Assembly: GCA_030324005.1 (NCBI GenBank)
Contig: JARDVH010000031.1
Coordinates: forward strand, 6,562,388-6,626,387
Reading direction: 5' to 3'
From: Negaprion brevirostris
Lineage: Eukaryota
DNA length: 64,000 nt
In this document: piece by piece, positions 5,030 through 52,420 of the stretch
How the letters are laid out: each line of letters begins with the position of its first letter
How positions within the stretch are numbered: position 1 is the stretch's first letter
Translations under genes and position numbers: made by a program
Notes under the pieces: generated by a model
Database searches by the model: none
What the model was told of the DNA's origin: nothing
The model's input: only the letters and a program-made list of their open reading frames with translations

Positions 5030-8000
5030 TAAACAAGAATAGGCCATTTGGCCCCTCAGGCCAGCAGTAAAATAATAGCTGATATGCTACCTCAGCTTCA
5101 CCTTCCAACACTATCTCCATCTCCCTTAGCCCCCAAAAATCTAGTAATCTCTGACTTGAATAAACTCAACAAGTGAGCATCCTCAAATCTCTTGAGTAAA
5201 GAATTCCAGGAGTTTGCAAACCTTTGTGTGAAGAAATTTCTTTTCATCTCAATCCTGAGGTTCCCAGCCCAGGGAAACATCCTCCCAGCATCTACCCTGT
5301 CAAACCCTTTCAAGAATTTTATATGTTTCAATGAGATTAGTTTTGATTTTTATAAGCTCTTGGGAATATAGATCTAGTCTACTCAAGCTTTTCTCACAGA
5401 ACAATTCTTAGACAGCATTTTCCAGTCCTATGACCACTTCCATTTAAAGAACAAAGAACAAAGAACAACCCAGCACGGGAAACAGGCCCTTCGGCCCAAC
5501 GAGCCCGCGCCGCCATCACCCNNNNNNNNNNNNNNNNNNNNNNNNNNNNNNNNNNNNNNNNNNNNNNNNNNNNNNNNNNNNNNNNNNNNNNNNNNNNNNN
5601 NNNNNNNNNNNNNNNNNNNNNNNNNNNNNNNNNNNNNNNNNNNNNNNNNNNNNNNNNNNNNNNNNNNNNNNNNNNNNNNNNNNNNNNNNNNNNNNNNNNN
5701 NNNNNNNNNNNNNNNNNNNNNNNNNNNNNNNNNNNNNNNNNNNNNNNNNNNNNNNNNNNNNNNNNNNNNNNNNNNNNNNNNNNNNNNNNNNNNNNNNNNN
5801 NNNNNNNNNNNNNNNNNNNNNNNNNNNNNNNNNNNNNNNNNNNNNNNNNNNNNNNNNNNNNNNNNNNNNNNNNNNNNNNNNNNNNNNNNNNNNNNNNNNN
5901 NNNNNNNNNNNNNNNNNNNNNNNNNNNNNNNNNNNNNNNNNNNNNNNNNNNNNNNNNNNNNNNNNNNNNNNNNNNNNNNNNNNNNNNNNNNNNNNNNNNN
6001 NNNNNNNNNNNNNNNNNNNNNNNNNNNNNNNNNNNNNNNNNNNNNNNNNNNNNNNNNNNNNNNNNNNNNNNNNNNNNNNNNNNNNNNNNNNNNNNNNNNN
6101 NNNNNNNNNNNNNNNNNNNNNNNNNNNNNNNNNNNTTTATTTATTTACTTGGTGTACCGGCATTTTAAGTTTCTATGATTCACATGCAAGTTCACCCAGG
6201 TCCCTCTAATGCAAACGTTACCCATTCTCAATATTTAGAAAATATTCTGCTATTCTTTGTTTCCTACTAATGTCAATAATCCACATTTCTCCACATTATA
6301 TTACATCTGTCACATTCGTGCTACTCACTTAGCTTGTCTTAATCTTTTTGCAGCCTGTTTGTGTCCTGCTTACTTTCCCACATAACTTTGTCTTGTCTTG
6401 GTGGCATGATACTCAGTCCCTCATCTCAGTCCTTGATCTACATTGTAGATAGTGGAGAACACTAATTCCTATGGTAGCCCACTAGGTACAGCTGCCAACC
6501 TGTCTGCTTTTAGTCCTTAACAAACCCTCAGTCTGTACTAATATATTATCCTCCCCCAATCCTCTGAGCTCTAATTTTATCTAATAACCTCATTGAAACT
6601 TACAGTATACTGAAAGGCCTGGAAAGAGTGGACATGGTGAAGCATTGTGTATTTGTTAGGACAGATACTGAGTACTTGTTCAATGTTTCTGTTGTTTCCT
6701 TATTTCTCATTATAGTTTCTGTTGCCTCTTCCTCTCGAGGACTCATTTACTTTTTCTAATCTCTTCCTTTTTACATCTCAATGGAGGCTTTTACAATTCT
6801 TTTCTTGCTTCTACCAGCTTATTTGCTTCCTTTATCAATTTTTTTGGTATTTCCTTATTGGATTTTAAAATTCTCTCAATCCTTAGGTTTATACTCTTTC
6901 TGGCAATATTATAAATGTTTTCCATGCATCAAATGTTATCTTTAAAGTATCTCTATCTCAAACTATCTTCTGTTAGCCATGGTTTTCACAGTAACTTTGT
7001 TGCAGAGTTAATGTAAGCCTACTTGTGATACTAATAAATAAACTCTAAACTGGGACCATAGAATCATGCAATATAGAAGAGGCCCTTTGGCCCATCGAGT
7101 CTGCACCAACATCTTAGAAACACCTGAACTCCCACTTAATCCCATCTATCAGCACTTGACCCACAGCTTGAATATTATGACATCCCAAGTGCTCATCCAG
7201 GTACTTTCTAAAGGATGTGAGGCAACCTGCTTCTACCAGCCTCCTAGGCAGCGCATTCCAGACCATCACCACCCTCTGGGTGAAAATGTTTTCCTTACAT
7301 CCCTCTAAACTTCCTGCCCCTCATCTTGAATCTATGTATCCTCATACATAGTTCTATACAACTCCAAGATGACTTCCCTAATCAGTGCTTTGATTGATAA
7401 AGGCAAGTGTCCCATATATATTTCTCACCATCACACCAACATGCCCTTCAGAGATCTGTGGACAAACATGCCAAGATCCCTTTGTTCCACAGAACTTCCT
7501 AGCGTCCTGCATTCATTGAAAACTTCCTTATCAAATTACATCTTCCAAAGTTTATCACCTCACACTTTTTATGTTTAAATTTTAACTGCCTATTTGACCA
7601 TTCTGTCTACATCTTTTTGTGGCCCAAGACACTCAGCCTCATGGTTAACCACCCAGCCAATCTTTGTGTCATCCGCAATCTTACTAATCCAACCCGCCAC
7701 ATCGTCAACTATTGCCATCATGTTTTATTCTTTAAGGGGGTTAGAATTTCTGTAAATTATGAATTAACTATTTAAATGTTTACTATTGCTTCTATACCAT
7801 TATATCTTTTAATCCAGTTTCCCAATCTATTTTAGCCAAATTGCCCCTCATCCCTCCATTCTTTACTTTGTTCTGATTTAGGACCCTAGTTTTGGACTTA
7901 ACTAAATTATTCTCAAAGTCCATACCAAATTCTAATGCTGTTTTTCTATCACTGTATGCTATGATCACTATTCCCTTGTTGCTCCTTTACTACAGGGTCT

Positions 8001-13341: not shown

Positions 13342-14016
13342 TTCGGAGATTCAGAAATTCGCTGCGTGCGTTTCCGCAAACAATTCCAAACAGGAACTAC
13401 GTCACCGGAAGTCCACCTCACAACCACCAATACCAATATTTAATTTTATTTTGTCAACATTCAGTGACAGATTGTTAGTCTTACACTAGACCATAAGCTG
13501 TTTTAACCTCCTCCCTGTATTATCTCTCGTCACTGTCAGTGATGCCACTGTGATCACATGATCTGAGCACACAGCTCTACGGGTGCCAGTGNNNNNNNNN
13601 NNNNNNNNNNNNNNNNNNNNNNNNNNNNNNNNNNNNNNNNNNNNNNNNNNNNNNNNNNNNNNNNNNNNNNNNNNNNNNNNNNNNNNNNNNNATCTCAATG
13701 TGTAGACTGCACAGTGAGAAAAGCGAACATTCCCTGCTGCCTGGTTCTTTATGATCCATTTGTGCCTCAGTGTCAGCTCCTTTTCGGGCCGTAGGAAATG
13801 ATTCATTCCTACCCTGGTGCCTGTAGAAACTGCAGCGAGATGATCTAACTCATTTTGTTTTCAGCCTCAGTTGGTTGCAGACCAAGAGAGAATTTGGTTT
13901 GTTCTGAACGGAGATCCCAGAGGGGAAGCTTTTTAACTAGCGTGGTGTACCTTGCAGGGTGCTGACAATGTGTTTTGCTGGGTTTCTCTCACTGTGTTGC
14001 TCTCTGTACTCTGCAG

Positions 14017-14320
14017 GCCCCACCGCTGTATGAGCAGCTGTCAGTCCTACTCCACCTTTAGCTCGGAGAACTTCTCTGTGTCAGACGGGGAGGAAGGCAA
14101 CACCAGTGACCACTCGCACAGTGGCACTCCGGACGGGCTGAGCAACAACAACGACGACCGGCTGGAAGACAAACTGGACGACATGCTGTCACACACTCCG
14201 GAAATTCCCATCGAGATATCCATGCAGTCGGATGGGCTGTCTGACAAAGAGTCTGCTGTCCGCAGGGTGAAAACTCAGATATCGCTCGGGAAACTGTGCG
14301 CAGAGGAGCACTGCTATGAA
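14017..14320 (+). CDS. MAP3K13: MAP3K13 penultimate coding exon
   Basis: ctgcag acceptor and GAA|gtgaga donor; 304 nt encoding (R)PHRCMSSCQSYSTFSSENFSVSDGEEGNTSDH...TPEIPIEISMQSDGLSDKESAVRRVKTQISLGKLCAEEHCYE, matching the recalled LZK C-terminus with the SDGLSD hexapeptide. Confidence 0.95.
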
Positions 14321-14794
14321 GTGAGAATCTCATCATTACTTTCCAAGCTCGTTCTCACCAGTTCTCATCTCTAGAGAGTGAGCCAAGAGAGAGAGAGAAT
14401 GAGGGAGTGTGCACACACACCTTTTTAAATGTAGCAAACAAATTCGTTAGGTTGTTAGGAAAGTACACAGAATCCTTTGGTCAAATGGAGACATTTGGTC
14501 CCAAATTAAGGAAGTTATACCAAACCTTTATGAATCATTGATTAGGTCCCTACTGAAATAATGTGCACAATTCTGGGCATCATACTTCAGGAAGAATCTC
14601 AACACCTTGGAGAGGGTGCAGAAGAGATTTCCTAGAATCATACTGCGAATGGGGAACTTCAGAGATATTAGGGAATCTGGGGTTAAAGTCCTTATAGTAG
14701 GGAAGGCGATTAAATAGAGGTTATCAAAATCACAAAGAGTAGGTTTTGATTGGGTAAATATGGGACAACCATTTCCAGTGGCAGATGTGTTGGC

Positions 14795-28110: not shown

Positions 28111-30696
28111 ACAGAAAGAAAGGAAGAACACGCACATTTAAATAATGCATTTCACAGGATATCTCAATAAGCACTTTACAGTCAATTCAGTACTTTGGAA
28201 GTAATAGGCTGTAATGTAGGAAATTATCGTCTACAAACAAAGTACCTCCCTCTCCTTGAGGAATTGCCCCAAGAGCAGGAACAAATTTGTGGAATACTAT
28301 TAATTCTAGGTCTCTCACCATCCAGGGTTGAAAGACCAGTGATATCATTAGGACACTGCCATAGAATTTCTAATTTGATACCCAATAACCACCTAACCCA
28401 CTACTGTAGGAATTGGATCAACTCAAGCTTCCTGTTTTACACCCTGCCCAATCTTCCATCGTAGATTCTGGAAAGTAATTTTGAACAATCTAATTACTCT
28501 GGCCGGTTAAACAGAGCCATTTAGGTTAAACTTATTTTTTCCCTGCTACAACCCCATTGTGGGAGCAGCTTCACTATAAGGACTGCAGTGATTTAGGAGA
28601 AGACCAGCCACCACACTATGCAAGAGCATCTAGGGATGAACAATAGCTTTTGCCTGTCTTTCATCATACCAAAAATATAACGAGCCCCCAATATCATAAC
28701 ATGGTTAGTTTTCTTGATTAACAATGTCAGATCCAATTTTAAATCTTATAAATATTCCTTAAATTCTACCCATGGAAATCAAGAATTTTGAACTTTAAGA
28801 CTTCTGAAGAAAGATTAAGACTGGTTGTAAAGACTGATTGATTAAATAAATACATTCAACATGGGCAGGTTTAAGGAAGGCAACAGTGCTGGGAGCTCTT
28901 TGATAGGCAGTGCACATGCAGTAAAACTGCATCTGCAAGATTTTTAAACAGCAGTGAAAGTGAATGGGTATGGGTGTGTGTACTTGTCTGAGAGAGATAG
29001 CAGGCTTGTGTATACCAAGAAGGATAAAAATGGCAATGACATGGCAAGTCTGTCACCTCCAAGTCAGGAACCACTCTGTCTTGGGTATGTATTGTTGCTA
29101 ATTTGCAGCATGGCCTTTCACAGGTTCAAGTATCAAACTCAATAGGGGTGTAAAATTCAAACCAGGTGGCCTCTGTAGAAATCCAAGGGAAGCAAGTGTT
29201 TTTCAAAGTCCCTTTGTAATGCAACAGAGCTACATTTACTAAGGAGATGGAAGGGGAAGAAAGAATTATGTTTTCTTCCCCTTGCACTCATCACTATCTC
29301 CCCAATCCCAGTTGTATTAAATTGACGCTTTTCACATTTATCATCATGTGCTGGCTTCTCACCAAATTCTTCCCTGGATATGTTGACAAAACATTTTATT
29401 TTAAAATAAAATGTTCTTTTTTTAAAAAAAGTGTGTAGAATACATTAACAGCTGGTCAGATGATTAACGTCCTTATTTATTCTAAGCTACAGGGGCTCAG
29501 GTAGCACACTCACCAGTGCTGAGGTGCCTCAAAGCTAACTCCTGTTCACATATATTTCTAATCATTCCTACACCTCTGGTCAGTTTGGAACTCCCTCCCA
29601 CTCAGCCTGGTTTGTGAAACCACAATCTGCTCTTCATGCCTGCCTTTCACAATATCATGAATAGTGAGGCAGTTTTGAGACATTGGGAACCAGAGTGAGG
29701 TGTTTATTGCTAATCTGGCCACACAGTACTCTACGATACAAGCCCTACTGCCACCTCTCGAAATAAAATAGGACACTCGACCAGCAGCACTGCACGTCCA
29801 CACAAACACCTGCCTGCCTTCCAGTGCAAGTGTTCTGCTGCAACATGAGCCATGTCAAACAACAGCCTTGCTGATCTGACAACAGAAACTGAGGCCAGAG
29901 GTTGGTCTTCCGAATATTCCAAATATACAAAATCACAGCAACGGCAACTGGAATTTGGAAGGAAAACCTGGCAGCAGGGATTTATCTCAGGCTCTGGGGT
30001 ATTTGGCACCATTGCAAACTCCCAACACCAGCCAAGGCTGGAAAGCTGGACAGAAAAAGAATAGCACCTCCCATGACCTCAAGGTTTTGTAAAGTGCTCT
30101 ACAGCCAATAAAATACTTCTGATGTGAAGTCACTGTTGTAAAGAAGCAAAGGCTTATTGATTGGCCCGTTGGTTCAGGTATCCTTTAACTTCTGCAAACC
30201 AGGTGCTCTGTTCTCTCCCCTGAAAGGACAGGTCACAGATTTTATAAATTGCACCTAGACCGACCTGCATAAATTGGGTCTTGAATAAGCAACATCCACA
30301 ATTCTGACCAGCTGAGACCTTACTAGGTTTATGGTGAAAATACCTTGCTCGTCTGTGCGTTCATTGCCACATTAGAGTTCCCTCTAATTACCCGTAAAGC
30401 AAGACAACCCACTCAGATGTGACTGCCAGCTTTATAATCAAATATCTGATGTCATTTGAGGGCAGCATTAATGAGTGGGCACTTACCAGCTTACAGAGAT
30501 GCAGCTAGAGTCAGCTGGGTGGATTTAACCTGAATGGGTAGCTTGTAGGCAGTGCTTTGAAGACTGTGGCACAGTTCAGATTCTACTGAACAAGCGTCTA
30601 TGACACAAATAAAACTCCGGATTTTAGATTGTTTCTTCAGATTAAGAACATTTCATACAATAATAAAATTATAAATCACAGATGGGTTAGTATTGG

Positions 30697-30920
30697 TCAT
30701 CTTGTTTTCCGGTCATTGTCCAAGTGCCCATTTTTGACCTTCTCTCCAAACTGCAGATGTTGGTGACTGTAATGCTTGATGAGAGCTCCTGGGACAAGTG
30801 CCACCATGGCAATAGCCAGCAGTTTCATGAGGATGGACCAGGAAAACAGGTTATCCAGGGAAGAGATCTCAGACAGGATGCAGCCAGTCTGGACGCAGAT
30901 AAAATTATAGGGGAGAAGAC
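30697..30920 (-). CDS. TMEM41A: TMEM41A exon 5 (terminal coding exon)
   Basis: tttttag acceptor; (G)LLPYNFICVQTGCILSEISSLDNLFSWSILMKLLAIAMVALVPGALIKHYSHQHLQFGEKVKNGHLDNDRKTR*. Confidence 0.95.
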
Positions 30921-31965: not shown

Positions 31966-32602
31966 ATATATTTCCAAGTAAGGACGGTGAGTAGCTTGGC
32001 TACTCACAGACAAGAACATTTGGAATGTTCAAAATGCAGCTGAACTACATAATTGAAGGGATAAGATAACAGAAGGGTGGGTGTCAACAGGAGAGGTGGT
32101 AATAGAGGGAAGGGTTTAATGGGGGATTTGACATATAGCCTTTGGTGGGAGAGTAACAGCATTATAAGGATGGGATTTGATGATCTGAATGACCTTTTCT
32201 CAATGTAAAAACATAATTTTACTTACCACAGATATTGACTTACAAGTCAACAACTGAAGTCTAAAAAAACCCCCAAAGAGAAGACTGACCTACATGTTGA
32301 GTATAAGTTAACCTGGGTATGGGGTGGTTGCCATTTTGAAATGCCATTAGCATCTGGCACAAAGATTGGGCATGTCTCANNNNNNNNNNNNNNNNNNNNN
32401 NNNNNNNNNNNNNNNNNNNNNNNNNNNNNNNNNNNNNNNNNNNNNNNNNNNNNNNNNNNNNNNNNNNNNNNNNNNNNNNNNNNNNNAGGTCCTGGTATCT
32501 GCTCAGTGTTACTGTCCCTATCCATTATTTCCTCATTTTCCCTAACTAAAAACATGTCCTCCAAAATGGGATCATTTTATAGGCTGGGTCAACACTGATT
32601 TA

Positions 32603-32833
<231 letters not shown>

Positions 32834-33929
32834 TTAAGTCAATATCAATGCCTGAATCAACAGATCTCATCCTGCACATGACACCTACCCCTTGAATAGA
32901 TTCAAAATGAATACTGATAGAAAACTAACATTTGATAACAAACAAGCAGATTACACCTCTATTAATCCTACCCTGTGCAATCAATTCATTCTACCTGACT
33001 ATTGTGAGACTGTTTGCTACTTAGGAGCTTCTATGACACTAATACAGTTTGGGAGAATTAGCAGCCCTTTGACTGTTCAGGCTGCTCCATTTGTCTCTGC
33101 CTGGGTTCAGCATCGTTCATCGAGCTGGTGTCAAGCAGAGGTTAGCACTGGCTTGCCAAGAGGAGCTTTTTTTTCCCCCAGACTGTACACAGTAAAAAAA
33201 GGGGACATGCATGTAGGGACAGGAGAAACAGGGAAGGTATTAAACAAATACTTTGCATCTTTCTTTACAAAGCAAATATCTGCAATATTGCTTTGTACAG
33301 CACAAATAGTCCTCATTTATAATCAAATCACTAGTTTTTACTACCTTCTGCTGGAAGAGAGCAGCAGGAATCAAAGCAGTAATGTGATGTTGGAACAGAG
33401 TGCATAGTGGGAGCAAAACTAAAAGGTTAAAGCAGAGTTACTGAATGACCAATTTAGCACTCAAGTAGTAGAACATGTTCCCAGCTACTACTAATAAAAA
33501 GTCTGAATCTTTTTCTGTACTCTTGCAATTTGCCAATCAGCCTACGTATAACTATTGACTTTAAATAAACTAAAGAAGTGAGCGAATTAATTTTATAAAC
33601 TCCTAAACATGAGGAACTTGTATGCAACTTGCTATGTATTGCATGTACATCTGACTGTGCAAAATATACTCTCATCCAATAGGTGGTTTATAGAAGTAAG
33701 TGTCTGTGGGAAAGAAATTGACAGCAAAATATTTAAATAATGATTCACATTCTTCCTATCAGCTAATTCCTCTCGCTTTCCAAGCTGTTCATTATTAGCT
33801 ATGATGTAGTCCCATGGATGAACTTAGACAGGAGCCTTAATACAGAGACAGAGACATCACAATACTGAAAAAAATTCTCATTTCCCCTCTATCTCTAGCC
33901 AATCATTTTAAATCTTTCTGGCTATTGAC

Positions 33930-36900
33930 TCAGTTGCCAGAAGCAGCATTTTTTTCTATACCTGCTCTCTTTAAAACCCTCAAGTTTTGAATACCTCAAT
34001 AGCACCCACTTCACTTTTTTCAGCTCTAAGGAGATTAATCCTGGCTTCTGCAATCTCCCTTCAGAGCTCTCCACTAATGTTCCTCATTCCTTGTACCAGT
34101 CTCAAATCTCCTCCGCAAGCCTTCCAATGGCTTCCTGAAGTGTGGTGCCCAGAACTGGCCACAATACTCCAGCGTAGGCCTAACTTTGTAAATATTCAGC
34201 ATGGCTTGCTTGTTTCTTTTTTAATGTCCCTATTTACAAAGCCAGTTATCCCATACTTTTATCTGACTGCCTTTTAACTTGCCCTGCAACCTTCAAAGGA
34301 TTGCAAATAACTAAATTAAATTTTATTGGCCACTTGTCTGCCACCTTGCCAGTTTGCCTATGCTGTTCATCATTCACTATTTTTCCAGGTTTAGTTTTAT
34401 CAACAAATTTCAAAATATTCCCTGTACCCAAGTCCAGGTCAATAATATTTAGCAAGAAAAGCAATGATTCCAATACCAAGCACCGGGGATCTGCACGGCA
34501 GATTTCTCTCCAGTCAGAAAAACAGCCATTTACCATTACATTCAGCCTCCTATATCCTTAGTCAATTATGTATCCAAGTTACTATCATTCTTCAAATATT
34601 GTGGTTCCATTTCCAAATAAGTCTGCTGCATGGTATTTCATCAAATACCTTCGCAAAATCCCTATCTTTGTCAACAGTTATTTTAAGGAATTCAGATTAG
34701 TCAATCACATTTTGCCTTTAAAAATCTGCGCTGGCTCCTTTATTAAGTTTCTCCAAGTAGTAATCTTTCCACCACTAACATTACTGATTGACCTGTAATT
34801 ATCAAGTTGATTCCTTTCCCCCTTTTTAACAGGGGTTTAGTATTTGCAATCCTCCAATCCTCTGGCACCACTTCCATATTCAAGGAAGGCTGAAACATTG
34901 TGATTAGAGTTTGTCTCCACCCAGGCTTCCATGCACAAATCTAGGATGCATCCCATTGGAATTAGGGACTCATTAGCACTGAATGATAACCTATTTTGCA
35001 CCTTTTTATATTTTCATTCTACGCAATATCTCCGCTGTGACATTAACATCCTCTTTCTGAAGACAGATGCAAAATATTTAAGAAACACATGCACACAAGA
35101 AATTTTTCAAAACAATCATAGCTGGTCTGCACCTTCAAACCCACTTTCCCAGTTGCTCCCCAAATCCCTCTATTCCCTCAAAGGCCAAAAATCTATCCAT
35201 CTCAGCCTTACATGCATTCAATGACAGAGCATCCATAACTTTTTGGGGAAGAGAATTCCAAAGAATCACAACCCTCTTGAAGAAATTCCCCCTCATCTCA
35301 GTTCTAAATGATTGACTTTTCATGCTGAAACTACGTTACCATGTAATACATGTCCCAGCCAGGGAAACAGTCTACCCATGTCAAACATCTTCAGAATCTT
35401 GTATGTTTCAATGAGATCACCTCAATTTTCTGAACTCCAGAGAGAAGACCCAATTTACTCAACCTATCATAGGACAATCCTCTCATCCCAGGTACCAATC
35501 TAGAGAACCTTTGCTGTACCACCTCCCATGCAAGTATTAAATTCTTTATTGATGGAGATCAAAACTGCACACAGTACTCTGTGTGTTCCCACCAAAGTCT
35601 TGTTCATTTTTCTTGTAATCCAATCCCCTTGCTAAGGCCAATAGGCAATGTGGCTTCATAACTACTTGTTGTACCTGCATGGTAACTTTGTGTTCCTTGG
35701 ATGAGCACACAAGTCCCTCTGAATATCAACATTTATTAATTTCACATCTTCTAAAAAAAACCTCTCATCTGCCCACACTATACTCCTTTAGCTATTTGGT
35801 TACTCTGCAAAGATGATAAAAATATTTGTTCAATACATCTTCCATTTCCTCATTCCCCACAATAATTACTCTTTTTTCTGCCTCCAGGGGATCAACGTTT
35901 ACTTTAACTACTCTCCCTCTTTGTATACATCTGCAAAAATTCTTACAATCTAATATTCCTGGCTGGTTTAATCTCATTCAAGCTTTTCCCATTTCATTAA
36001 TTTTGTGGTGATCCTTTGCTGGTTTCTAAAACATTCCTAATCTTCAGGATTACCACCACTCCTGGTAACATTTTAAGCTTTTCCATTTAATGTATTATCC
36101 TTAACTTCTCAAGAAATCATGGAATATATTTCTTGCTGAGAATTTGTTTTTGATTAAAATGGAAAGCACCTTTGCTAATCATTTTGAATATTTTCTTTAT
36201 ATGTTTTCCACTGCTTATTTATATCCAGTTTTTAGTCTATTTACCCAATCAACCTTAGCCAGCTCTCTCCTCATACTTATGCAATTGGCTTTGTTTACAT
36301 TTAAGATTTTTCTTTGGGACTTCTCACAACTTGTGTCATTTTTTACTATCAGGGCTAACATTGCTTCTCTACTTCTGTCTGCCTTTTCCGAATGTTTTTT
36401 ACCCCGGAATATTTATTTCCCAACCTTGGGATCATGACTAATGGTGATTAGATCTAAAATGGTTATCACTACTTGTGCCACTGGTGCAGCTACCTTGGGG
36501 CGAATGCTTTTGTCATTTAGATAAGGGCCTTTTTTTAAATACCATTACTTGCATGCGCCTTGCTGGCTGATGCAATATTACTGTTGAACGCACTGTCCTT
36601 CTCTTCTTGTCTTGTACACAATTGTTACACTGTTCTATAGTCTCAACTTTTCTATTTGAACAGCGTCAATCCCCCTGACTATACTGTGCCCCATTATATT
36701 CCTTTCCCTCTCCCATTGAATTGTATCCTGCACCAAGGTTCCATGGTCAGTTTGCTCATCTACATTGCAGTCCTTGTTCTCATCCACAGCTAGCAAGTAT
36801 CTTGTACCTGCTCATCAATATCAAGGGCTGATGTTTCAATCACTTTATGTTGGATCCTTGCACTTACCTGATTCACAGCCACACACTTCAATTGCTAACC

Positions 36901-37110
36901 ATTGAACAAGTTTAAATAAGGGGCATGAATACCTCCCAAATCGAAGTATCCCTAAAACAATCCCCCTCTTAGATGTACCACAACGCCTGCACATCTGATT
37001 CAGCTGAGTAACCCTGAGCCAAAGCTGCTCAATATGCAAACACTTAACACATATATGGTGGTTCATTGCACAAACTCCCACATGTTGTAGCCACAGCACA
37101 CCAAATACCC
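33930..37110 (-). mobile_element. Nested degenerate CR1 LINEs
   Basis: ORFs VNGCFSDW...LFLLNIIDLD, FRTEMRGNFFKRVVILWNSLPQ, KVNVDPLE...VLNKYF, and ORF1-like HICVKCLHIEQLWLRV. Confidence 0.8.
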
Positions 37111-37789
37111 TCAATTAAAAAGAAACCCCAGAACTAAAGATTAGAATTGGCTTCCAAGACCTTCAACATTTCGAACGATTCTCCCATCCCACCGCGTTAA
37201 TTTTTTAATGCAGTGGGCTGGGAGAATCCCACTGGGGGCAATTCACAGGGTTTGCTCGCACATTTGCGCCCCACTAGCTTCTCCCAGCACTGGATTTGCA
37301 GCAACATCTGTTCTGTGCTGGAAATCGGCAGGGAGGTCCAAAGATCATTTAAATGGTCATTTGAGTATAATTTAAATTTGATTAGCAGGCCCAGGAATGA
37401 AGTCTCTGGGTCTGCTAGTATCTCCTTCCCCGCCAAAGTGGTTCATTCCAGTGGGATTACACTAGCTCCCCACTAACAGGAAATTAGCAGCCCGACCTCG
37501 CTCAAGTGAAGGGGGGCAATCAGGGACCCGCAGAGGGTCTGACGGCAGGGTGGTGCTCCCTGGGCATTGGCACATTGGCAGTGCCAGTCTGTACCATCTG
37601 GCACTGCCCAAGAGACAAGGTACCAATGCCCAGGGGCACTTTGGCACTGCCCATTGGGCATGGGGCAGTGTCAAGGGATGGGGTCATGGGATAGAGTGGG
37701 AGGTGATGGGATGGGGTGAGATGTGAGGGATATTGGAGATGATGGCAGCGGTGGGGAAGTGGATGATCAATTTCTGCACCTTAATTGCA

Positions 37790-38135
37790 ATGTTGAGGGA
37801 GTGTTGCATTGTTAGAGATGCTGTCTCTCGGGTGAGGCATTGAGGCTCTTTCTGCCTGCCCAGGTGGATGCAGAAGACCCCCCACCCCTTGAAGAAGTGC
37901 AAGTGATTAATCCCTGGTGCCCTGCCCAATATTTAGCCCTCAATTAACATCGTAACAACACAGTTTACCTGATTATTAGCACACGGCTATTTGTCAGAGC
38001 TTGCTGTGCACAAATTGGCCACCGACCACATTTGCTACATTGCAGCAGTGACTGCACCTCCAATAGTATCTTGTGGCTGTAAAGAGCATTGGGATGTTCA
38101 GTGATTCTGAAGGGCACTACATGAATATACTTTTT
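37790..38135 (+). mobile_element. DeuSINE (SacSINE1-like) fragment
   Basis: gcccaatatttagccctcaattaacat...gagcttgctgtgcacaaattggc...tacattgcagcagtgactgcac core; related copies near 42190-42460 and 59590-59890. Confidence 0.6.
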
Positions 38136-38690
38136 ACAATAAAATAACAAGCAGCACCAAGTTACCTCCACAGACTGTAAGTCCTGCTGTTATGATAATG
38201 TGCTCTTTTAAAACAAAATGCACAACATAGACTGATTATTTGTTCGTATGAAATTAGCATTCTTACAATTTCCACAGGGATTGTTGTTTAGAGAAACAGA
38301 TGTCACATCAGTGCAGTATGGCTTGGTCTTATGAAGTTGGCACCATAGAACATGGCTTAATCAGAGAAGGGAAAGTTTCACTTTATATGTAATCATGGGA
38401 CTGGGAGTGCTTGTTGAACTTAATGTCTGAAATAGGGAAATATTCGATTTTTCTCTGTCAGCGTTGCTTAGCTTGCCTTGATAGGAAGAATGAGGAAAAG
38501 CAATATAAAATAACGATTGCAATTCTAAAGCAGATACAGAAACAGAGAGACCTGGGTTATATGTGCACAAGTGACTGACATGGTAAAACAGATGGAGAAA
38601 GTGGTTAAAAGTGCATGCGGAATTCTGGTCTTATTAATAGAGGAATACAAAAGCAAGGAGATTATGATCAATGGCCTCAGTTGACATTTT

Positions 38691-38907
38691 GGGTGGAATT
38701 CTCCCAGCCCACCCACCACAGGAATTGTAGCGGGCCGGACACAGCCCATGCACAGATCTGTTGACCTCAGGTGGGATTTTCGAACAACCATGGCTGAAAA
38801 GCTCGCTCTAAAGCCAGAAAATTCTTCCCACCTTCAATGGGCCTTTGCATGGTCCATGTCCTGCCCATTATGATTCTCCTGGAGGGCAAGATGGGAAAAT
38901 CCCACCC
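38691..38907. mobile_element. MITE (PIF/Harbinger-like) inserted in a CR1 fragment (38440-39440)
   Basis: Terminal inverted repeats GGGTGGAATTCTCCCA and TGGGAAAATCCCACCC (14 of 16 complementary); related short copies at about 61038-61155 and 61356-61475; superfamily assignment is inference. Confidence 0.65.
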
Positions 38908-40013
38908 AATGTATCCAATTCTGGGGCATCACATCTTAGGAAGAATGTGAAATCTTTACAGAGGTTTGCAGAGAAGATGCACAAGATTCGTTCTGGGAAT
39001 GAGGGATTTCAGTTACAATGGACCAATGGATAGATCGGCGAAACTGGGTCTGTGCATTGAGACTAAAAAGTTGAGAGAAGGTTTGAATGAGGTGTTCGAA
39101 ATCGTGACCGGTCTTGACAGAATAGGTAGAAACTGCTCCAATTAAGAATCAAGTATCAGAGGGCATTAATATAAAGTGAGAGGTAAAAGAAACATGACAG
39201 ACATGAGGAAAAACTTATTTACGACAGCAAGTGGTTAGGATCCGGAGTGCCCTGCCTGAGAGTGCAGTGGAAACAGATTCAATCGTGAAATGGATAAGCT
39301 TCTAAAATGAAAAAAAATTTTAGGGCTATAAGAATGGGCCAGAGTGTGGGATGAGCTGATTAACTCTTACAGAGAGCTGTCATTGACACGTGAGGCTAAA
39401 TGGCCTCCCTACATTCTGCAATCATGCAATGATTTTATGAACTTAAAATTCACAAAAATGTATTAATGCTACATATATAAACTGAATACAGTAACTGGAA
39501 ATAATGTGATTGGGGCTGCCAGTGATCTAATCTGGAATAAATCACTTGTCTTAGTTTATTCTTCATGCTGCAATGATCCTTATTGTGTTTGAGCATCACT
39601 GCCTGACCCTTTTAGCAGAAAGTGTGCCATTATATTTACTGCTCAAGTGTTGAAATTGAGAGGCCTTGCAATGGTGAGTGATCTGCTAGTCTTGACTGAG
39701 GATCTTGGTTTGAGAAGAGACAGATCACTTCCTGCACCACTCTCAGGTCAAACACGGAGCCACTTTGACGCCATCTCTGGGCTCAGCTGTCGCAACTGAC
39801 AAGATGGAGCACAAGGGGGTGAATGGAGGGTAACCTGTGAGTAAACTCCAGGTTTCTTCAATATCTAGTGAGAGACTGTACCAGCTTGAACCTCACTCAA
39901 ACCTTTGACCAGAGTTACCAGCTTTTCTTTCCAATCCTGTTACTCTCCATTTGGTATTAGCCTAGTGGAATATGTTGACTTTATTGATCAGGTTGCTTTC
40001 ATGTTGTTTTCAG

Positions 40014-40113
40014 ACAGCTCATGTGAAACAAAGAAGTTGGTATACATTTCCACGTCACTGATTGCTAAGCGAAATTTGCAACTCCCTGCAGATAAACAGA
40101 CACCAGAAGACAT
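40014..40113 (+). CDS. LRRC46: LRRC46-like exon (equivalent to exon 2), antisense within TMEM41A intron 3
   Basis: ttttcag acceptor and AT|gtgagt donor; open 100 nt encoding SSCETKKLVYISTSLIAKRNLQLPADKQTPED, resembling recalled LRRC46 VCITEALITKRNLTFPEDGELSEK. Confidence 0.72.
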
Positions 40114-40485
40114 GTGAGTGGCCACAGCTTGGCAGTGGGAGTCCATAAGAAACATCACTGTCTGGATCATTGTACGGTAGCAGCAATGAGGCATTAGACT
40201 TTCCCAATCAGTTAATATTAACGATCTTTTTTGTTAGAGCACCATGCTCTGCAGATCAGAAGGTTCCTGCTCTATCCTGTGATTGATTATCTCATCCTAT
40301 ATATTCCCAATTCTTGACTGCTACCCTGCAAACTCTTGGTAAATACTGTGTGTGCTTATTAGTAAGGTCAGTGGTGATCCTCTATGCAGTAGAATAGTGT
40401 GCTAAATCTCACTCTAGGCTCACAGAACAGCGAGGTACTCAAGGGCAGCCAGCACCAGTGGAATCAAATCCCAGCAAGGGGAAAA

Positions 40486-40774
40486 GGGATGGCACAGTGT
40501 TTAGCACTGCTGCCTCATAGTGCTAGGGACTTGTGTTCGATTCTTAGCATGGGCCAGTCTCTGTGTGGAGTGTGTACATACTCCCCATGTCTCTGTGGGT
40601 TTCCTCCGGGTGCTCCAGTTTGCTTCCACAGTCCAAAAGACATGGGAGGAAACCTACGCAGACATGGGGAGAATGTACAGACTCCGCACGGACAGTGACC
40701 CAAGCTGGGAATTGAACCTGGGGTCCCTGGCACTGTAAGGCAGCAGTGCTAGCCACTGTGCCATCATGCTGCCC
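40486..40774. mobile_element. Two V-SINE 5' halves fused in inverted orientation
   Basis: + strand head/core at 40486-40643 directly followed by - strand head/core at 40644-40774. Confidence 0.85.
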
Positions 40775-41331
40775 ACTAATAACTGATAATGTCAGTACAA
40801 TACTGAGGGTATGCTACAGTGAGTGAGGTTGGATCCTAATAATTCACATGGCATTCAGATATGAAGGAGTTATTGGCCAGCTGTCACAATATCTGCGTTT
40901 CCCTGAGCCTAAAAAATTGATGTAAGCAAGATCTTCCCCACTCTTGCTTTTTTACACAATTTACAATACATCGGCTTGTTTCCCAGTCGAGGGCACATCT
41001 TTATGGAATCATTTGTTTGCTGTGCCTCAGTTTCAGTTCCTTCCCATCCCCTAAATTTGCTTGTTTCAATATTTCAAAATTATAGTTTGAATTGTTAAAA
41101 TAGGCATAAGGCTTCCATCTAGTGGCTGTGTTTAGTGCAACCTTCACAGATTCTTTAAAATAAAGGCAAGAAAAATGAGCTTGGGTGCACAAAGTGTTGA
41201 CTCTTTTTGCTGTGGTTTCTCCAGGTCCTGCACTATTTAACAGTCTATCTCAGTGACACCTTGTATTGAGTCTGCTTTGATAAAAATGAAATTTCCAGTG
41301 TTTGACAGATTATTCCACGTTTTCCATACAG

Positions 41332-41440
41332 AACAGAAGCTGTGGAAAAGCTGATGACTGTTCGATTGGACAGAGAGAATATTGACGCCCTTGGAAATTT
41401 TGAGTGCTTGGGAAATGTCTACAGTCTTTACCTTCAGCAG
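41332..41440 (+). CDS. LRRC46: LRRC46-like exon (equivalent to exon 3), antisense within TMEM41A intron 3
   Basis: ccatacag acceptor and CAG|gtactt donor; 109 nt encoding TEAVEKLMTVRLDRENIDALGNFECLGNVYSLYLQQ, resembling recalled LRRC46 LQTVRLDREGITTIRNLEGLQNLHSLYLQG; phase matches the upstream exon. Confidence 0.8.
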
Positions 41441-42349
41441 GTACTTTTACTTTTACCTATGTCCCACAGACATGGGCTTAGGCGAGATCAGGCTTGGAGA
41501 AGGGAGCTGCAGATTAGAACCTTCTGGCGCAGGAGTTTGGGACATGGCANNNNNNNNNNNNNNNNNNNNNNNNNNNNNNNNNNNNNNNNNNNNNNNNNNN
41601 NNNNNNNNNNNNNNNNNNNNNNNNNNNNNNNNNNNNNNNNNNNNNNNNNAGCAACCAGGATTGGCTTAGGGGATAGGCGGGGGGGGGAATCAGTTGGCTG
41701 GGGATTGCAGTGGATGGGTCAGGGCTGGGCCCGGGAATGGTTGGAGTCCAACAGGCGGGGAGGGGCGGCGCGCTGATTTCTGACTCTCCAGTGGGGATAC
41801 TCCCCAGCCTCTGATATTTAATGATATTCATGCAGGTGGCCTCTGCAATGCACAGATAGTGGGAGACTCTTCTCTGATCTCCCACTGAAAAAAACAGCAA
41901 GAGTTACTCCAGTTTTCATGTGAATTTGACATGAATTTTTTTGGGAGAATTCCACACCTAGTCTTTAACTACCGCCTGAGCAAAAAAACCCTGAAAATTA
42001 TGCTCTTCTGTTCTGGACCAAACAACATGGATTCTCCGTAATAAACTATCAAATCCCTTTATTTTTGATTAGATCACACATCACTTTAAATTCAAAGATA
42101 CACAACTCAAATTTATGCAACCTCAATTTACATAGTACTTGTCCCAGTTAGAAAACACTGGAATCAAATCTCTTTCCAGGCATTTAGTACATACTAAGGG
42201 CTGATACTCAAGTACAGCAGGTGATGCTGTCTTTTGGAGGAGGGATTGATCCGAGGCCCTATTTGTCTGTCTGTAAAATATCCCATGACACATGGAAGTT
42301 CTTCTTGCCACATTTATCTCTCAATCAGCACAATTTAAACGGTCATTTA

Positions 42350-42691
<342 letters not shown>

Positions 42692-43451: not shown

Positions 43452-43667
<216 letters not shown>

Positions 43668-51589: not shown

Positions 51590-52420
51590 GTGTGTAAAAC
51601 CGGCTGCCGCCTGTCCTACAGTGAGGACGTTTCACCGAGTGAAGCTGGAGCCTTCCCTCCAGCAGTCAGTGCCCTCACCACAACCTCTGCGAAACAGCGG
51701 CACCATACGAGCCCCAGCTGGAGCCTCCCGAAGCCGCGGCCTTTTACCTGGGCTCCTGCCTCTCCTCCTCGCTGCCGCCGCTCAAAGGCACCCGGCTGTG
51801 CGCTGCATGAGGCAGATTGCTGGACAGCACATATAGATAAACCGTGGCAGCGCCGAATATTACCAGCAAGCCAACCGGAGACTTGGTCGACATGAACCCG
51901 GGGAGCTCGGTGAATCCGGAGGCGGCGGACGAGCGACAGCTGCAGCGTCCTCAGCAGCTGAGGCAAGAACCGTGAATGGTGACGATCCGGGAGGCCGCCC
52001 GGCGCCCTGGACTGCGCGCGCAGCCCGCTCGTCACTTGACCCGGAGCGCGCAAGCGCCCGAGGACGTCACTGTAGCCCAGCTGTCATGGCAACCGGAACA
52101 GGCCAAGGCCATTGGGAGGGCGGAGCACGTGACCCCGTCATCCCGGTCCCCGCCGCCGCCTGGTCCCCGCCCCCCTCACCCCAGACGGCGCCCCCGCCCA
52201 CCCCAGGCCCCGCCCTCTCAGGCCCCGGCCCCCGGCCGTCCTAGCTCCCGCCCACTCTCAGACCCCGCCCCCACCATCCCAGACCCCGCCCCTGGCCGTC
52301 CCAGCTCCCGCCCGCCCTCTGGTCCCCTCCATCAGAGGCCCCGCCCCGCCATGGCAAGCCCCGCCCCATCCCGGTGCATCTTGGGGACGGATGCTGTCGA
52401 AGCAGCGGCTTAGTCAGGGT
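51590..52420. promoter_or_regulatory. CpG island / TMEM41A promoter
   Basis: The only strongly GC- and CpG-rich block in the window; overlaps exon 1; many CCCCGCCC GC boxes, CCAAT box (attgg at 52111), CACGTGAC at 52126-52133, X-box-like GCTGTCATGGCAAC at 52080-52093. Confidence 0.85.
51748..51893 (-). CDS. TMEM41A: TMEM41A exon 1 (coding part)
   Basis: ATG at 51893; MSTKSPVGLLVIFGAATVYLYVLSSNLPHAAHSRVPLSGGSEEERQEP(R) with a hydrophobic N-terminus; CAG|gtaaaa donor, phase 2 joins exon 2; all five exons total 825 nt (274 aa + stop). Confidence 0.92.

Follow-up and report, generated by a model that had tools for sequence, protein, structure and literature searches.

Two coding exons that lie antisense within intron 3 of TMEM41A in the draft assembly of the lemon shark, Negaprion brevirostris (G000), are real exons 2 and 3 of an ordinary LRRC46 gene, most likely displaced by an assembly misjoin. 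We analysed a stretch of 64,000 nucleotides on scaffold C31 (hereafter the window), in which both exons and five coding exons of TMEM41A can be read (Table 1). One intact LRRC46 gene, with its full reading frame open, is spread over three scaffolds of this assembly, and the positions at which exons are missing from its main locus are occupied by gaps.

Exons 2 and 3 of LRRC46 in the window

The initial annotation had pointed out two stop-free exons with canonical splice sites and matching phase, and had attributed them to LRRC46. Re-reading the sequence bore out both points. Each exon has AG before it and GT after it, the spliced frame runs without a stop, and the joined exons give the same peptide as had been reported; no stops or frameshifts were found in either exon. 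When exon 3 and its flanks were used as a query, seven proteins matched among 13 candidates (best E 9.8e-14), a match that by its E value is far beyond chance. All seven are named LRRC46-like, and they come from sharks and a sawfish. A Pfam search with the two window exons alone returned no family at E 0.1. Exon 3 has one match in the lemon shark assembly, and the region around exon 2 (39420-40480) is single-copy. As assembled, the two exons share with TMEM41A exon 4 a stretch that contains no N (32487-41549).

Table 1. Coordinates in the window of the TMEM41A and LRRC46 exons and of the sequences around the proposed false join. P0002 is the Mustelus asterias LRRC46-like protein and L008 an LRRC46 retrocopy.
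Feature	Position	Strand	Remarks
TMEM41A coding exon 5	30697..30920	-	
TMEM41A exon 4	32623..32761	-	
Left half of abundant repeat with inverted ends, TMEM41A intron 3	37175..37678		Cut at G-rich stretch
LRRC46 piece, probably misplaced (3,871 bases)	37679..41549	+	Putative home: 4,147-N gap at G000:C154:9734706-9738852
LRRC46 coding exon 2	40014..40113	+	100 nt, phase 1 to 2; 31/33 residues identical to P0002
LRRC46 coding exon 3	41332..41440	+	109 nt, phase 2 to 0; 34/37 residues identical to P0002
First 30 bases of LRRC46 intron 3	41441..41470	+	L008 continues from here into C154:9738913 onward
Head of young interspersed repeat in LRRC46 intron 3	41471..41549	+	40/40 scored candidates match
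100-N scaffold gap	41550..41649		No missing LRRC46 exon need be here
Right half of split repeat copy, TMEM41A intron 3	41650..41955		Presumed true continuation of the intron
TMEM41A exon 3	42530..42691	-	Beyond the 100-N gap; VTT domain, E 3.5e-6, below curated cut-off
TMEM41A exon 2	43467..43620	-	GC donor after
TMEM41A coding exon 1	51748..51893	-	

One LRRC46 gene over three scaffolds

The LRRC46-like protein of Mustelus asterias (P0002, XP_078080611.1) served as the full-length query against the lemon shark assembly; 67 of 67 candidates were scored, giving 46 matches. This search placed each of exons 2-8 once: exons 2-3 on C31, the scaffold of the window, exons 4, 5 and 8 on C154 (at 9741401, 9744484 and 9755464) and exons 6-7 on the minus strand of C164. 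Exon 1 can be read at C154:9734385-9734415, where 8/10 residues are identical to P0002, in a CpG-rich patch (observed/expected CpG 0.76). Read from 1 to 8, the exons agree in phase and encode 316 codons with a single terminal stop, and 291 of the 316 residues (92%) are identical to the Mustelus protein, evenly over the exons. A 4,147-N gap follows directly after exon 1 on C154, before exon 4, and a 2,957-N gap lies between exon 5 and exon 8. These are the positions at which exons 2-3 and exons 6-7 are missing.

Taken literally, an assembly with exons on three scaffolds could mean that exons 2-3, and separately exons 6-7, were really cut out and pasted elsewhere in this lineage, after which LRRC46 would be either dead or restored through trans-splicing. 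We give this next to no credence: none of the eight exons is damaged and conservation is even across them, gaps of estimated size stand in place of the missing pieces, and it would take two independent moves that both kept the frame.

The top three protein-cluster matches of P0002 are LRRC46 or LRRC46-like (scores 0.97-0.98), and the N-terminal leucine-rich repeat families LRR_4, LRR_8 and LRR_9 are above cut-off in this 92%-identical relative. Judged by best matches, the domains of P0002, synteny and the intact frame, the window exons belong to the LRRC46 orthologue. Apart from a young repeat in intron 3, which is present in the window sequence and apparently absent from the contigs of three sequencing runs (X2, X7 and X10), we found no biological difference between vertebrate LRRC46 and the lemon shark gene. 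Mouse Lrrc46 is reported to be required for sperm flagellum biogenesis (PMC9369233), and by analogy the shark gene likely serves sperm-tail building as well.

Two X-box-like motifs are found at G000:C154:9734362-9734395, just before and over the LRRC46 start codon. They look like the motifs to which RFX factors bind at cilia genes.

The initial annotation had placed the remaining exons either in the 100-N gap or between those of TMEM41A, or else had considered the two exons a partial duplicate. The search with P0002 located exons 4 onward on C154 (4, 5 and 8) and C164 (6 and 7), and tblastn of seven LRRC46-like homologues against the whole window recovered only exons 2-3, the rest being weak chance matches. 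The missing exons are thus neither in the gap nor interleaved. There is also no second intact copy of exons 2-3 in the assembly, so the two exons are not a partial duplicate of an assembled gene.

The proposed first exon, at 39823-39829, was likewise not upheld, the true first exon being on C154. In the retrocopy described below, the last nine bases before exon 2 match this candidate (forward strand) at 4/9 and C154 exon 1 at 8/9, and observed/expected CpG is 0.23 at the candidate vs 0.76 at C154 exon 1. Between 37679 and 40013 there are six looser ATG-plus-donor patterns, and the exact 7-base form of the candidate occurs once.

Genomic neighbourhood in the lemon shark and its relatives

SP6 is located some 50 kb upstream of LRRC46 exon 1, at C154:9683729-9684886. 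In human, LRRC46, SP6, SCRN2, MRPL10 and OSBPL7 are given as neighbours on chromosome 17 (PMC10602697). Unlike in human, MRPL10 is not adjacent to LRRC46 in the lemon shark assembly; a Ribosomal_L10 search gave four matches among nine candidates, and the match on C154 is an MRPL10 exon at 10419674-10419814 (L045), about 0.68 Mb from LRRC46. A search for SCRN2 with PF03577 gave nothing between SP6 and LRRC46 (one match of three candidates, on C31), for which a gap or a weak profile may be responsible. The distant MRPL10 and missing SCRN2 could be due to a real local rearrangement or to more assembly error.

A proline-rich open frame also occurs on C154, at L033:3057-3551 (G000:C154:9793551-9793057, minus strand). 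Nothing in Pfam was above cut-off for it, and we presume that it resembles a WIPF-family exon.

In 5/5 sharks for which both are listed, the LRRC46-like protein and an SP6-cluster protein are on contigs of equal length, which is a proxy for the same chromosome. In three of the five (Mustelus, Heterodontus and Heptranchias) their RefSeq numbers are consecutive; the Mustelus member of the SP6 cluster is labelled Sp8-like. TMEM41A and LRRC46-like are on contigs of different length in 6/6 cartilaginous fishes with both listed (15/17 members of the main TMEM41A cluster were listed, and a seventh species, Pristiophorus, came without contig data), although other species do not prove the state in the lemon shark.

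These observations bear on the idea of an LRRC46-like gene, complete or interleaved, nested on the antisense strand of TMEM41A, the other exons of which would occupy the 100-N gap or alternate with those of TMEM41A. Such a gene would fit the intact exons, the canonical splice sites and the gap-free stretch shared with TMEM41A exon 4. True nested antisense genes exist, for example OMG, EVI2A and EVI2B in an NF1 intron, and these are alike in having coding exons on the opposite strand within the host intron, as assembled here. However, a true nested gene has all its exons in the intron, is driven by its own promoter and is placed in the same way in related species, and none of this holds for LRRC46 here: the window contains 2/8 coding exons, the CpG-rich first exon is on C154, and the two genes are on different-length contigs in all six species. 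No further LRRC46 exon occurs in the 64-kb window, exons 1 and 4-8 are present once each elsewhere and complete the frame, and the sequence after the 100-N gap is the other half of an interrupted repeat. We therefore regard a nested gene as highly improbable. The antisense position in TMEM41A intron 3, as originally annotated, stands as a description of the assembly and is most unlikely to reflect a real nested gene, since the six other exons are on C154 and C164. In the literature searched, we found no paper treating both LRRC46 and TMEM41A.

The left junction

To its left, the LRRC46 sequence abuts half of a repeat in TMEM41A intron 3. This repeat is abundant, with 4,933 first-look candidates for 37175-37677, of which 40 were scored. 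The continuations of nine other copies resemble each other, and none is like the window after 37678. Six of these nine hold both halves (the second like 41700-41955) in like orientation, with some 340-730 bases between the anchors, which argues that the window contains one repeat copy split at its G-rich middle, with the LRRC46 piece and 100 N between the halves. The two outer ends of the repeat are inverted likenesses of each other, and in four of the nine other copies Ns are found just past the same point.

We also compared the window with the contigs of four (X1, X2, X7 and X10) among 24 listed runs, three of the 24 being tentatively taken as RNA (shares 0.05-0.09). Those of X1 and X2 begin matching at exactly 37679, with 4 and 79 unmatched letters beyond, respectively. 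The four letters of X1 are weak alone, and as X1 is nearly identical to the window letter for letter and may be its source, it does not count as independent support. Among the contigs listed, none crosses 37678/37679 and two diverge there; none spans the whole stretch or bridges 35307-35394, 37377-37679, 38735-38754 or 40516-40746 either, and such holes prove nothing. The C154 contig to the left of the 4,147-N gap ends in G-rich sequence, with 59% G in its last 90 bases vs 51% after 37679. The longest word shared between this gap edge and the sequence from 37679 onward is nine bases, so their likeness is compositional only.

The false join thus most likely lies inside the contig, at 37678/37679. 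The initial annotation had argued that the gap-free stretch rules out a joining error, which does not hold if the join is at this position. It had also named a chimeric contig as the outcome that would speak against its own reading, and it is to such a contig that the evidence points, though not from long reads.

The right end: a retrocopy and a young repeat

A decayed processed retrocopy of LRRC46 is present on C132 (L008; G000:C132:110015868-110016200). It comprises the end of exon 1, exons 2-3 joined and some 130 bases of intron 3, as far as an AATAAA. The initial annotation had raised the possibility of a near-identical complete copy elsewhere, of which the window exons would be a decaying duplicate; the only other copy is this old retrocopy, which is 81-84% identical. 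L008 matches the window at 41337-41471 and then C154 at 9738913-9739016, with three bases common to both at the switch. Its structure points to a short ancestral transcript that terminated within intron 3.

The Carcharodon RefSeq model P0001 contains a peptide from the same read-through after exon 3.

Beyond the first bases of intron 3, the window contig runs into the head of a young interspersed repeat, presumably a LINE. The C154 gap is bordered on its right by 60 bases (9738853-9738912) from the tail of this family. In 4/11 other copies examined, such a head and tail stand on either side of a single gap and share one orientation. Most simply, the window contig would end in the head, and the C154 contig start in the tail, of one intron-3 insertion. 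The contigs of X10, X2 and X7 match the window to 41470 and then run off it for 300, 451 and 247 letters, respectively, and these ends probably continue as C154 sequence.

A further tail of this young repeat family is found at 5451-5521 in the window, 98% identical to C154:9738853-9738912 and beside a 614-N gap. The assembly often breaks within this family.

The geometry of the two ends, with a piece between two halves of one inverted-ended repeat, is also that of a captured fragment, and there is no N at the left join. A real capture would mean that a recent, unspliced 3.9-kb segmental copy of LRRC46, from intron 1 to intron 3, was inserted in the inverted-ended repeat of TMEM41A intron 3 and then collapsed with its parent, leaving the C154 gap. 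Pack-type transposons capture gene fragments in plants, and the lemon shark case, if true, would be one of the rare instances among animals of host exons carried within a repeat. We nevertheless consider a capture very unlikely. The right end stops in the head of a repeat that has its tail on C154, in keeping with an assembly break, and exons 6-7 are likewise displaced, in their case into a copy of another repeat family on a third scaffold. The X1 and X2 contigs diverge from the window at the join. The per-contig depth of X1 is alike on both sides (5.6-7.7 vs 5.7-6.5), a weak point, as depth is no copy number.

Probable origin of the misplacement

Under a misjoin, the displaced piece covers most of intron 1, exon 2, intron 2, exon 3, the start of intron 3 and the repeat head. 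Without the repeat head it measures 3,792 bases, and either this or its full length compares with the 4,147 bases estimated for the C154 gap. We infer that this gap is its home from the gap itself, the repeat borders and the retrocopy; counting against it, no read or contig seen links the piece to C154 or 37678 to 41650. The gap size is an estimate only, and an intron-3 repeat of several kb together with the piece would exceed 4,147 bases, which counts against this home. We have treated 37679-38735 as probably belonging with 38754-41549 in one piece; the listed contigs are interrupted at 38735-38754, and 37679-38735 may instead represent a third piece.

A plausible course of events begins with two short-read contigs whose ends were G-rich and of low complexity, one end lying midway through the TMEM41A intron 3 repeat and the other in LRRC46 intron 1. 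An assembly or gap-closing step may have fused these ends at 37678/37679 without Ns. The fused contig would then have broken in the young repeat of LRRC46 intron 3 and been scaffolded with TMEM41A. In the animal, there would be one eight-exon LRRC46 beside SP6, encoding a leucine-rich-repeat protein of 316 residues.

The contig carrying exons 6-7 (G000:C164:1465773-1474784; L038-L039) looks like a second false join, judging from its repeats. Upstream of exon 6, the C164 contig carries the repeat family that is also found directly to the left of the 2,957-N gap. Comparing the gap edges gave the same repeat family on both sides and no exact overlap. The C164 stretch for this gap is about 3.6 kb, larger than the gap estimate; the looser fit in size is a point against a misjoin.

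'Fragmented' false gene losses, as described by Kim et al. (bioRxiv 10.1101/2021.04.09.438906), are similar in that the exons of one gene are scattered over several draft scaffolds. The present case differs from that class as described there, in that the displaced piece has been joined to an unrelated contig with no Ns in between and so mimics a nested gene. With 96,185 contigs, the lemon shark assembly is a fragmented draft. There is no biological novelty in finding LRRC46, a known gene, in its expected neighbourhood, but the case calls for caution: a stretch free of Ns in this assembly can still be a false join, and a single gene shows two displacements. Nested, split or translocated genes in this assembly need to be checked for a gap at the donor locus and for repeat borders, and an annotation of it would wrongly call LRRC46 broken.

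Other features of the window

Two overlapping open frames, at 29734-30078 (minus strand, 115 codons) and 29849-30061 (plus strand, 71 codons), are situated just downstream of TMEM41A. Nothing in Pfam was above cut-off for either, and they are probably due to chance. TMEM41A intron 2 (at 43467, minus strand) has an apparent GC donor instead of GT. A long coding exon is found at 13937-14371 (plus strand), with nothing above cut-off in Pfam; it presumably resembles MAP3K13, the expected neighbour of TMEM41A.
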